From Vulcanisaeta sp. AZ3 (GTDB lineage: Archaea > Thermoproteota > Thermoprotei > Thermoproteales > Thermocladiaceae): DNA of 64,000 nt. Below the pieces are notes generated by a model. That model made no database searches, was not told where the DNA came from, and saw nothing but the letters and a program-made list of their open reading frames with translations. Each line of letters begins with the position of its first letter. The stretch's first letter is position 1. Below are positions 19,453 through 51,553 of this stretch, in pieces. The stretch spans positions 1 through 64,000 of the forward strand of contig JZWU02000006.1 of NCBI GenBank assembly GCA_000960865.2, in the 5' to 3' direction. A program made the translations under genes and the position numbers.

Positions 19453-20346
19453 ATGCCTTTTGTTAGGGAGTCCATGTATAAGTTCATTAAGGACCCAGGT
19501 GATGTTAGAGTTGGTGAGGTTGTAAGGAGGAGTTGGGTTAGTGGTGATGTGGGTATTTTAGGGATCCCTTGGGATGGCGCCGTGGGGACTAGACCTGGTT
19601 CGAGACTTGCTCCATCAAGAATCAGGTCCTGGCTATACTCATCACCTTTAATATACAGTGGGTTGGGTATTGTTGATCTCGGTGATGTTGATGTGGTGGT
19701 TGGTAATCATGAGGAGACTTGGCGGAGGGTGGAGGTTACAGTTGCTGAGGCCTTGGGCCTTGTTAAGGAGTTATTTATTATTGGTGGCGATAGTACTACG
19801 TCATATGCGTCCTTCCGTGGCCTAAGGAAGGCTATCAATGGTGAGTTAGCATATGTACTCTTTGACGCTCATCCAGACGTTAGGGTTATTAGCGAGGGAT
19901 TGACTAGTGGCCAAGTTATTAGGTGGATTAGGGAGTTGGATCCAAATTCATTCATAACTATAATAGGCGTGAGACCGCATTCTAATGCTCCATACTTATT
20001 TAGAGAAGCCGAGAAGTTAGGTATTAAGCTTTATACAATGGATTATATAGATGCCCACGGCATAGATGATGTAGTAAAGGAACTTACGGAACTTATTAAG
20101 GATAGAGTAGTATACATAAGCGTGAATCTAGATGTTGTGGACCCGGCCTTTGCGCCAGGAGTTAATAGTCCATCACCTGGGGGATTCACCTCTAGGGAGA
20201 TTATTAGGTTTGTGCGTGAGGTTGCAGTTAGGTTTAGACCTAGGATCTTTGATGTTGTCGAGGTTACGCCACCATTTGATGTGAATGATTTGACGAGTAT
20301 GCTGGCCTCAACTCTGTTAATAAATGCCGTGTGGGTTAATAGATGA
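19453..20346 (+). CDS. hutG: Arginase-family ureohydrolase, probable formimidoylglutamase
   Basis: RPGSRLAP, DLGDV, GGD, DAHPD and LDVVDPAFAPG; hutU, hutH and hutI are nearby. Confidence 0.75.
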   Translation: MPFVRESMYKFIKDPGDVRVGEVVRRSWVSGDVGILGIPWDGAVGTRPGSRLAPSRIRSWLYSSPLIYSGLGIVDLGDVDVVVGNHEETWRRVEVTVAEALGLVKELFIIGGDSTTSYASFRGLRKAINGELAYVLFDAHPDVRVISEGLTSGQVIRWIRELDPNSFITIIGVRPHSNAPYLFREAEKLGIKLYTMDYIDAHGIDDVVKELTELIKDRVVYISVNLDVVDPAFAPGVNSPSPGGFTSREIIRFVREVAVRFRPRIFDVVEVTPPFDVNDLTSMLASTLLINAVWVNR

Positions 20347-49727: not shown

Positions 49728-50053
49728 ACAAGTAACGAGAAGAAATAAAGAAATAAAAACTTTACTAGGGACTAGGTTAAGCCGTGGAATCTACCTTATA
49801 AACTATAATTAATGACTAACTTATATTTACATAATCTTCTCATACTTAAGCATATGCTAGCTATGCCTTATTTGTAGTATTATGATGCCGTAATTTTCAA
49901 TACGTAATGACCTGAATCTTAGCTATGAGCAGCCAAAATATCCTCGGTTGGCTTAGGTCTTTGAGAGATTACTTGCATACCATACTCCTAACCGAGGTTG
50001 GGATTAGGATATCTAAGAAAACGCATAAAAAGGTAAGATGGCAATACAAGTAT

Positions 50054-50206
50054 GGGGCCGTAGTCTAGCCTGGCTAGGGTGGGTTTCAGCCACGGTTATG
50101 ATGCGCGGCTTTACGGCACTCTAAAGTGCCGTACCGCAGCGGGTTGCCTGGTAAAGAAGCATGAGTGCCCGCGTGACCCCGGGTTCAAATCCCGGCGGCC
50201 CCACCA
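50054..50206 (+). tRNA. tRNA-Pro(CGG) with three introns (positions 22/23, 33/34, 37/38) and encoded CCA
   Basis: Acceptor stem GGGGCCG/CGGCCCC-A-CCA, T arm CCGGG-TTCAAAT-CCCGG, anticodon stem CGCGG/CCGCG. Removing 50078-50099, 50111-50139 and 50144-50167 gives a 78-nt cloverleaf with loop CT-CGG-GC; each junction has a BHB-like motif. Confidence 0.88.
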
Positions 50207-50214
50207 AATTAACT

Positions 50215-51553
50215 TTATTCGTTGTAATTAATCGTTAATGCTTTGTACACTAAGTCCATGAGACCCGTATAGGTTATTTTATAGTTGTATATTTTATTTA
50301 ATTTTGGTAAGGCCCTATCCATTTGTAATTTGCATGCAGCACATGGTACGACTATATAGTCTGCCTTCTTTGCTTGGGCCTTCTCATACCATAGTTTTGC
50401 GTATGTTATTGATAGCTCTTCCATATCTTTCGATAGCATGCCGCTTGTTCCTCCGCAACATATTGCTAGCTGTGGTTTCTCATTTAGGTATGTATAGTTC
50501 TTCGTAACCATCGATAATATGTATCTTGGTTCATTTACTAGATCGCCGCCTCTTGCATAATGGCATGGGTCCATGTATACGTAATGGGCATCTCCATTTA
50601 ATGACTTATTAACTTGTATTAATCCTCTTCTTATAGCGTCAGCCGTTAGGTATAGTATATGTGTTCCCTCTATTCCGTAATCCCTGAGCCTTGGGATTAT
50701 ATAGTTCTTGAATACGCGCCATCCATGACCGCACTCACCTGCTATTACTAACTTAACGCCTAGCTTCTTTGCTTCATCCACAATTCTCTCAGCTATTAGT
50801 TTCATGTGTCTTTCATCCATGAATAATCCATAATTCGTTATGTCAGGCGCCTTTGTACTTATTGTGAAGTCTATCCCGAGCTTACTTAGTACTAGTATGT
50901 AGCCTTTGAGGGTCTCAATAGCTATTGTATAGTCAGCACAGGCTGAGGGTAGGAGTAGGGCTTGGGCCTTCTCATCGATTTTAACCTTAATATCAATTCC
51001 CTTTCCCTTTCCTTTTAATCTCGTAAATTACGTTATTAATCACGGCCTTTATGACCTCAGGTGGCGCCCCTAAGAAGTTCCCGGTACTTTCTAAGTTATT
51101 TATTACACCAACAACGTAAGTTGGCGCTAAGCCCATCTCATAAAGTATTTGCCTAATGCTTCTGGAGACTTCACCAACGTCAATGCCAAAGGGACACGCC
51201 CAAGCACATCTCCTGCAGGTTAGGCATTGCCAGTAATAAGTATATGCATCATTAATTGTGTCCTTATTAACCTTACCATTAATTATTGCCTTGGCAAGCA
51301 TTAATCTACCTAGTGGCGAGTTCTTAATATTGTCAATGGATATATATGCAGGACATATGGCTAAGCAAGCACCGCATCTCATGCATAGCTCTATAGCTAG
51401 TCTTAGATTTCTATTCTCATGATAACTTTCGATTAATCTATGCCTTAGATAATCAGTGCCCGCTCTCCTTAATTTAATTCCCACTCTACCGTGGAGCGCC
51501 TTAATTAAATCCAATGGTGCGTAATTATGTCTATATTCATGAAGCTCTCTCAT
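50215..51553 (-). CDS. DsrK/HdrD-like Fe-S oxidoreductase (two CxxCxxCxxxC motifs plus CCG domain), split by a frameshift near 51000
   Basis: CMRCGACLAICP, CLTCRRCAWACPFGID, GECGHGWR, DPC..ARG, CCGG and PCAACK. The sequence between the two ORFs is open in the downstream frame (GIDIKVKID..LLPSACAD..NYGLFMDE). Confidence 0.82.

Follow-up and report, generated by a model that had tools for sequence, protein, structure and literature searches.

The window, by which we mean the whole 64,000-nt stretch of DNA that was analyzed, carries on its plus strand a 153-nt tRNA-Pro(CGG) gene that, on direct reading, begins with GGGGCCG and ends with CGGCCCC-A-CCA (Table 1). Splicing by script gave exons of 24, 11, 4, and 39 nt (78 nt) and introns of 22, 29, and 24 nt (75 nt). 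ARAGORN read the spliced 78-base product as tRNA-Pro(cgg) with a standard cloverleaf and a 7-nt anticodon loop. The Rfam tRNA model RF00005, run with permissive filters over 49900-50360, matched 50054-50203 with 39.2 bits (gathering score, 29; E value, 6.9e-7); the match covered model positions 1 to 71 of 71, with a 29-nt insert in the D loop and a 56-nt insert in the anticodon loop. Script splicing, ARAGORN, and template parsing all recovered the coordinates, the 4-nt micro-exon, and the CGG anticodon of the original prediction. The spacing usual in archaeal promoters points to a possible TATA-box role for the ATAAAAA element upstream of the gene.

Table 1. Coordinates of the tRNA-Pro(CGG) gene, its parts and flanking signals, and the other two Pro genes of the genome
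Feature	Position	Strand	Basis or remark
Candidate TATA box, A/T-rich ATAAAAA	50025..50031	+	Sequence reading; center ~26 nt 5' of first tRNA base
Whole tRNA-Pro(CGG) gene, CCA encoded	50054..50206	+	ARAGORN, RF00005, template parse
Exon 1, tRNA positions 1-22	50054..50077	+	Splicing and parse
Intron 1, 22 nt, position 22/23	50078..50099	+	Relaxed motif
Exon 2, positions 23-33	50100..50110	+	Splicing and parse
Intron 2, 29 nt, position 33/34	50111..50139	+	Relaxed motif
Exon 3, 4 nt, anticodon CGG plus G37	50140..50143	+	Splicing and parse
Intron 3, 24 nt, canonical 37/38	50144..50167	+	Strict motif once intron 2 is gone
Exon 4, positions 38-73 plus CCA	50168..50206	+	3' part 94-100% identical to same-genus Pro genes
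T-rich run CTTTATT just 3' of CCA, possible transcription stop	50213..50219	+	Sequence reading; putative role
Pro(TGG) gene, one 46-nt canonical intron	C47:2735-2858		
Pro(GGG) gene, one 23-nt intron	C7:45183-45281		

To parse the gene, we took every fit of 139 nt (to position 62) to a degenerate tRNA-Pro template that allowed up to three introns and an NGG anticodon. Three introns were needed in every one of the 1,254 template-consistent parses. A 5-bp anticodon stem combined with a splice motif at all three introns occurred in a single parse, which has introns at 22/23, 33/34, and 37/38 and the anticodon CGG. In this parse, the register of the three motifs restores exactly a 7-nt anticodon loop.

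Default ARAGORN made no call at 50054-50206 and, with introns allowed, reported a tRNA-Gly(gcc) with one 56-nt intron at the same locus. Rfam in gathering mode over the whole window gave no match there, in contrast to the permissive run. Hence, the warning that scanners may miscall the anticodon was justified: ARAGORN either misses the gene or calls it Gly(gcc). With a Gly(GCC) call in its place, the genome would seem to be without a CCG-specific proline tRNA. Scanners that do not remove introns iteratively miss or mislabel this Pro(CGG) gene. Elsewhere in the window (19526-19617, plus strand), ARAGORN found a 92-nt tRNA-Leu(tag), yet Rfam gathering mode over the whole window returned no tRNA at all; fast filters or an unusual gene may explain why this tRNA-Leu was missed.

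Splice motifs and predicted order of removal

Splice motifs were scored with a simple geometric rule of our own. The central helix had to have four pairs and to stop two bases short of each cut, the inner helix had to begin one base into the intron, and the outer helix was sought past the 3' bulge. Under this rule, we found again all the helices and bulges that had been named from the original reading of the gene. The central helix of intron 1, GGCT/GGTT (50072-50075/50094-50097), has 4/4 pairs, of which three are G·U and one is C-G; its inner helix is the 4-bp GTGG/CCAC (50079-50082/50090-50093), its bulges are AG↓G and AT↓G (arrows mark cuts), and it has no outer helix (at most 1 pair). The central helix of intron 2, GCGG/CCGC, also has 4/4 pairs and joins the 5' strand of the anticodon stem (50105-50108) to 50134-50137. 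Its inner helix is a perfect 9-bp hairpin (50112-50120/50125-50133), with bulges CT↓T and AG↓C and 1 pair in the outer helix. The central helix of intron 3, CTCG/TGAG, spans the intron 2 junction, pairing 50109-50110 plus 50140-50141 with 50162-50165. Its 3-bp inner helix, TGC/GCA (50145-50147/50159-50161), is the same with or without intron 2, and its bulges are GG↓T and TG↓C. The outer helix of intron 3 is the anticodon stem itself (50104-50108/50169-50173), with 5 standard and 2 G·U pairs after removal of intron 2. A strict hBHBh' motif was therefore found for intron 3 alone, and only with intron 2 removed, while introns 1 and 2 have the relaxed HBh' form (a central helix, one closed 3-nt bulge, and an inner helix). 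These motif names are reportedly those of Marck and Grosjean (2003), whom PMC4090602 cites.

When the letters of each intron were shuffled 20,000 times, the observed central and inner helices were equaled 50 times for intron 1, never for intron 2, and 29 times for intron 3. The ensemble probability of the intron 1 central helix was 0.0 in all splicing states at 37, 60, and 80°C (ViennaRNA), so that removal of this intron would rest on the tolerance of the enzyme.

With intron 2 present, intron 3 has 2/4 central pairs and no outer pairs; with intron 2 removed, it has 4/4 central pairs and 7 outer pairs. Three of the six possible orders of removal offer every intron a motif at the time of its removal, and in all three, intron 2 leaves before intron 3. 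In the other three orders, intron 3 has 2/4 central pairs and no outer pair. In ViennaRNA ensembles, the probability of the intron 3 central helix was 0.0 with intron 2 present and 0.63 to 0.78 after its removal at 37°C (0.13 to 0.40 at 80°C). The central helix of intron 2 had a probability of 0.95 to 0.96 in the full precursor at 37°C and of 0.60 to 0.65 at 80°C; this fell to 0.18 if intron 3 left first, because GCGG would then pair preferentially with its real partner strand of the anticodon stem. Both the pair counts and the probabilities bear out in silico the earlier claim that the motif of intron 3 exists only after intron 2 has been removed. We concluded that the predicted order, intron 2 and then intron 3, is well supported in silico, since intron 3 acquires its full set of central pairs and the anticodon stem only once intron 2 is gone. 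By eye, the anticodon stem together with a helix of 3/4 pairs (CTTT/TGAG) could expose the 3' site of intron 3 while intron 2 is still present. Because crenarchaeal endonucleases accept relaxed motifs and this 3/4 helix is possible, the order may hold for the 5' cut only; in our model, dependence on intron 2 is firm only for the 5' cut of intron 3.

The catalytic subunit of the splicing endonuclease, EndA, is clearly encoded in the genome, with 111.8 bits for TIGR00324 (cutoff, 59.6), and RtcB (C4:1141-2454) scored 568.5 bits. A second PF01974 protein of about 124 amino acids, a candidate second subunit, scored 43.7 bits against a Pfam cutoff of 27 but fell far below the NCBIfam cutoffs for the beta subunit (25.4 bits against 157); the two endonuclease genes lie on contigs C41 and C39. 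The sole named genome record returned for EndA was that of an uncultured Thermoproteaceae archaeon, with 64% identity.

We consider it probable that this locus is the functional tRNA-Pro(CGG) gene, present once, of an archaeon of the Thermoproteales type and that three protein-spliced introns interrupt it, at 22/23, 33/34, and 37/38; we infer its expression, the cuts, and their order. In the primary transcript, CCGC inside intron 2 would hold GCGG, the 5' strand of the anticodon stem. The relaxed motif of intron 2 would consist of the GCGG/CCGC helix, the CT↓T bulge, and the 9-bp hairpin of the intron; the splicing endonuclease would cut after U33 and before C34, and RtcB would join the ends. 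The anticodon stem could form only at this point, when UGAG of intron 3 would also become paired with C32-U33-C34-G35. The strict helix-bulge-helix-bulge-helix motif made in this way would be cut after G37 and before C38. Intron 1, with a weak, wobble-rich relaxed motif of its own, could leave at any time. Intron 2 would thus act as a decoy: it duplicates the 3' strand of the anticodon stem and would occupy the 5' strand until excision. Under ordered removal, the 4-nt exon would never be set free as a separate piece.

A functional gene might also be spliced without a strict order, either by independent cutting of the six sites, with the ligase sorting the pieces, or by early cutting of the 3' site of intron 3. 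We regard this as unlikely. Splicing of introns 1 and 2, which themselves have no outer helix, already demands an enzyme tolerant of relaxed motifs, and the two-subunit splicing endonuclease has a wide substrate range according to the available excerpts of PMC4090602 and PMC4033280. In addition, the anticodon stem can in principle form in unspliced RNA, with the TG↓C site beside the 3-of-4 helix (by eye). However, the 5' site of intron 3 in RNA that still contains intron 2 has neither an outer helix nor more than half of its central pairs, and GCGG is bound to the intron 2 strand at an ensemble probability of 0.95. Moreover, simultaneous cutting would free a 4-nt exon requiring two ligations. 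Ordered splicing remains the reading that we prefer, and the locus offers a compact substrate for studying it in vitro: a 153-nt transcript with three graded motifs and one clear dependency.

Copies, orthologs, and variants of the gene

The assembly comprises 1.51 Mb in 55 contigs and is 89.85% complete. The pattern of the Pro 5' exon matches it exactly at three places and no more, in the CGG gene of the window, a TGG gene, and a GGG gene, and the first 20 nt of exon 1 are the same in all three. Within this assembly, the gene is therefore the only Pro(CGG) gene, a point on which the original prediction had called for a check; a second one may lie in the part of the genome that the assembly lacks. 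By eye, its exons differ from those of the Pro(TGG) paralog at position 34 alone and are identical to those of the Pro(CGG) genes of two same-genus genomes (G001 and G011). The flanks align at 68 to 80% identity with the Pro(CGG) loci of six same-genus genomes (G001, G006, G007, G010, G011, and G012), indicating that the gene is the positional ortholog of these genes.

Our survey of the family took in 79 Pro 5'-exon sites, drawn from 29 of its 30 other genomes; the three sites of G019 and two sites at contig ends were left out. With the gene of the window included (n = 80), 68 sites were parsed and 12 were not: a T arm was missing within 900 nt at 9 sites, 2 gave no parse, and 1 exceeded 300 nt. 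Weak motifs occurred in 5 of the 67 parses from relatives. Pro(CGG) accounted for 25 of these 67, with one such gene in each of the 12 same-genus genomes. Eight of the 25 have no intron, 10 have one, 7 have two, and none has three. No Pro(CGG) gene was shown in at least one other family genome (G042), and the g5 loci were unparsed. An intron at 33/34 or 22/23 was found in none of the 67 parsed genes of relatives, and the shortest exon between two introns was 8 nt among them, compared with 4 nt in the gene of the window. Of the 12 same-genus CGG genes, 7 have two introns (25/26 and 37/38) and 5 have a single intron. These orthologs share with the gene of the window the syntenic locus and a D-arm intron with the same hairpin core, but their canonical introns differ in sequence from intron 3. 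The hairpin core of intron 1 is the one found in the 25/26 intron of the orthologs, with cut sites 3 nt upstream and a different intron strand in the central helix. From its sequence, intron 1 looks like a slid copy of that intron. Since the orthologs of sister species have one or two introns, the locus would document a recent gain of an intron at 33/34 together with a 3-nt shift of an existing one.

A search of the genome itself (blastn-short) with the three introns and their 6-nt flanks returned only their own locus and chance 10- to 15-mers. The intron 2 pattern, with up to 3 mismatches, was found in none of the 61 other genomes of the order, and the exact pattern had no match in metagenome contigs and none in species-genome contigs, collections from which records of this genome itself may be absent. 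Families of transposed tRNA introns have reportedly been described, in reviews that point to Fujishima et al. (2010). The near-identical copies in other tRNA genes that mark such a family were not found for intron 2.

A bolder reading, which we think rather doubtful, is that intron 2 is a very young intron caught soon after its origin and that its CCGC strand is a decoy imposing an obligatory refolding checkpoint on the only tRNA-Pro(CGG). If so, the supply of the CCG decoder could depend on temperature or on the capacity for splicing. With the 3-nt slide of intron 1 added, the locus would then provide a natural series for the gain and movement of tRNA introns without transposition of an existing copy.

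Three contigs of public sequencing runs bear on how the gene varies; a look for RNA runs that contain the locus returned none. X1, possibly from the source sample, spans 49800-50197 with no substitutions. X2 (4,597 nt; depth, 11), from another study, spans the same positions and has 7 substitutions and a 6-nt deletion upstream of the gene. A base missing at 50149 and an A-to-G change at 50158 are the only 2 changes of X2 within the gene. Both fall in the intron 3 loop, and the A-to-G change would, by eye, extend the inner helix of this intron by a fourth pair. X3 spans 49943-50133 without a change inside the gene. Variable sites among the three contigs are too few for a selection test. Joints in contigs that might have been taken for spliced forms were rejected, as they have other letters between the two sides and come from tRNA genes of other organisms that share ends with this one.

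These comparisons also bear on whether the gene is decaying, with the 33/34 intron and the weakened intron 1 motif blocking splicing and CCG being read by tRNA-Pro(UGG). The wobble-rich central helix of intron 1, with its predicted probability of zero, and an intron 2 matched nowhere else searched are what decay might look like. Against this, the exons are unchanged relative to the TGG paralog (position 34 aside) and to the two orthologs above, and all three motifs lie in the exact register that restores the anticodon loop. Exons and introns 1 and 2 are also identical in the diverged strain represented by X2, whose spacer carries 7 substitutions and an indel, although these sites are too few for a test. 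Furthermore, Pro(CGG) genes recur across the family and are present in every same-genus genome. We concluded that decay is improbable and that the gene is more plausibly a working one. Least credible of all is an assembly artefact or a chimera made from several tRNA genes. In its favor, such genes have ends in common, and both ends of this one attract many contigs from other organisms. Against it, individual contigs of two studies (X1, X2, and X3) pass through the gene, which excludes an artefact of assembly for practical purposes, and synteny with the Pro(CGG) loci of relatives holds on both sides.

Other interrupted tRNA genes in the genome and family

A generic census of multi-intron tRNA genes (motif enumeration with an ARAGORN check) was too permissive, giving many anticodons per gene; a Pro(cgg) gene that it proposed at C8:11263-11381 was rejected as a class II Ser-like tRNA by eye. 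Several further genes were noted from this permissive census combined with inspection by eye. A tRNA-Ile(GAT) gene at C42:8612-8743, with a copy at C46:87-216, parses with three introns (21, 17 or 16, and 16 nt), including a canonical one. Its first two introns, at about 29/30 and 30/31, are separated by a single-nucleotide exon (G), which, if correct, is tighter than the arrangement in Pro(CGG). A Met-like gene at C46:891-988 has the same body as tRNA-Ile(GAT) and the first intron only. In tRNA-Asn(GTT) (C13:7590-7713), introns of 31 nt (with a 10-bp hairpin) and 16 nt flank a 7-nt exon, and the outer helix of the canonical motif grows from 1 to 5 pairs after removal of the first intron. The tight Ile and Asn cases suggest that Pro(CGG) is one of several such genes in this organism.

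By eye, a nearly identical intron of about 21 nt with a GGGGC/GCCCC hairpin is present in the 5' strand of the anticodon stem of at least 10 tRNA genes of different anticodons (C13:18036-18151, C33:11705-11820, C42:8612-8743, C46:87-216, C46:891-988, C26:18630-18740, C1:63830-63956, C16:21529-21655, C8:30316-30414, and C36:10468-10566). By analogy, this looks like a spread family of the kind that reviews attribute to Fujishima et al. (2010).

Several Pro sites elsewhere in the family were also unusual. In three genomes of another genus (G046, G016, and G022), five sites (L104, L106, L107, L108, and L110) have Pro 5' parts running through the anticodon (TGG or CGG) and then unrelated sequence; no T arm was found within 900 nt. 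The five are candidate split tRNA-Pro genes. At three other sites (L091 and L093 in G024, contigs C53 and C100, and L065 at G014:C7:77927-78840), the first 27 nt of a Pro gene give way to unrelated DNA, with a Pro 3' part located 0.9 to 1.3 kb downstream. These sites might each represent either an insert of great length or an attachment site duplicated by an integrated element. Finally, at L034 and L036 to L039 (G009 and G003), the 3' strands of the Pro acceptor have 5 to 7 C's, compared with 4 in relatives, and the introns contain runs of G; these runs are probably homopolymer errors of the two assemblies.

Relation to known three-intron and nested systems

According to the excerpts available of PMC4033280 and PMC8450103, tRNA genes of Thermoproteales carry up to three introns. 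The gene of the window has three, of which two are noncanonical, and 62 genomes were grouped as belonging to the same order. Excerpts of PMC4390854 describe pre-tRNA-Pro(UGG) of Pyrobaculum islandicum as a three-intron case, and Pro(TGG) genes with three inserts were recognized by eye in 3 genomes from a different genus within the order (L176, L180, and L188). As the original prediction had stated, then, three-intron tRNA-Pro genes are known in this order. Those genes and the gene of the window have in common the isotype, the order, and three introns, all short and protein-spliced, of which one is canonical and another falls in the region of the D arm. Their inserts lie in three different arms, however (about 25/26, 37/38, and 53/54 or 56/57), with exons of at least 11 nt between them, so that each motif is able to form alone. 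In the gene of the window, two introns instead lie 4 nt apart in the anticodon loop and share motif nucleotides, and the anticodon is CGG rather than UGG.

Three-intron tRNA-Pro genes and nested archaeal tRNA introns that need ordered removal have already been published, to judge from the available text of PMC4390854, PMC3728597, and PMC8450103, and the last of these states that tRNAscan-SE 2.0 removes introns iteratively on account of nesting. The logic in these excerpts is the one proposed here, in which the later motif appears only after removal of the earlier intron. The text available of PMC8450103 names neither a gene nor positions, so its nested cases do not lend themselves to comparison with the 33/34 and 37/38 pair or the 4-nt exon. 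The excerpted account in PMC3728597 also describes the nuclear tRNA-Ile(UAU) of Cyanidioschyzon merolae, which has three introns of the bulge-helix-bulge (BHB) type whose order of removal was shown by reverse transcription-PCR (RT-PCR) intermediates. Three BHB-type introns and an order of removal are thus common to both genes; in contrast, C. merolae is a eukaryote, its introns are not nested in that account, and their order is set by the stability of the motifs and not by the dependence of one motif on another. Ordered splicing of nested introns is not a new idea, and the gene described here leaves the known mechanism unchanged. Its interest is local and lies in a lineage-specific intron at 33/34, an apparently slid D-arm intron, and a clean in silico dependency between two introns.
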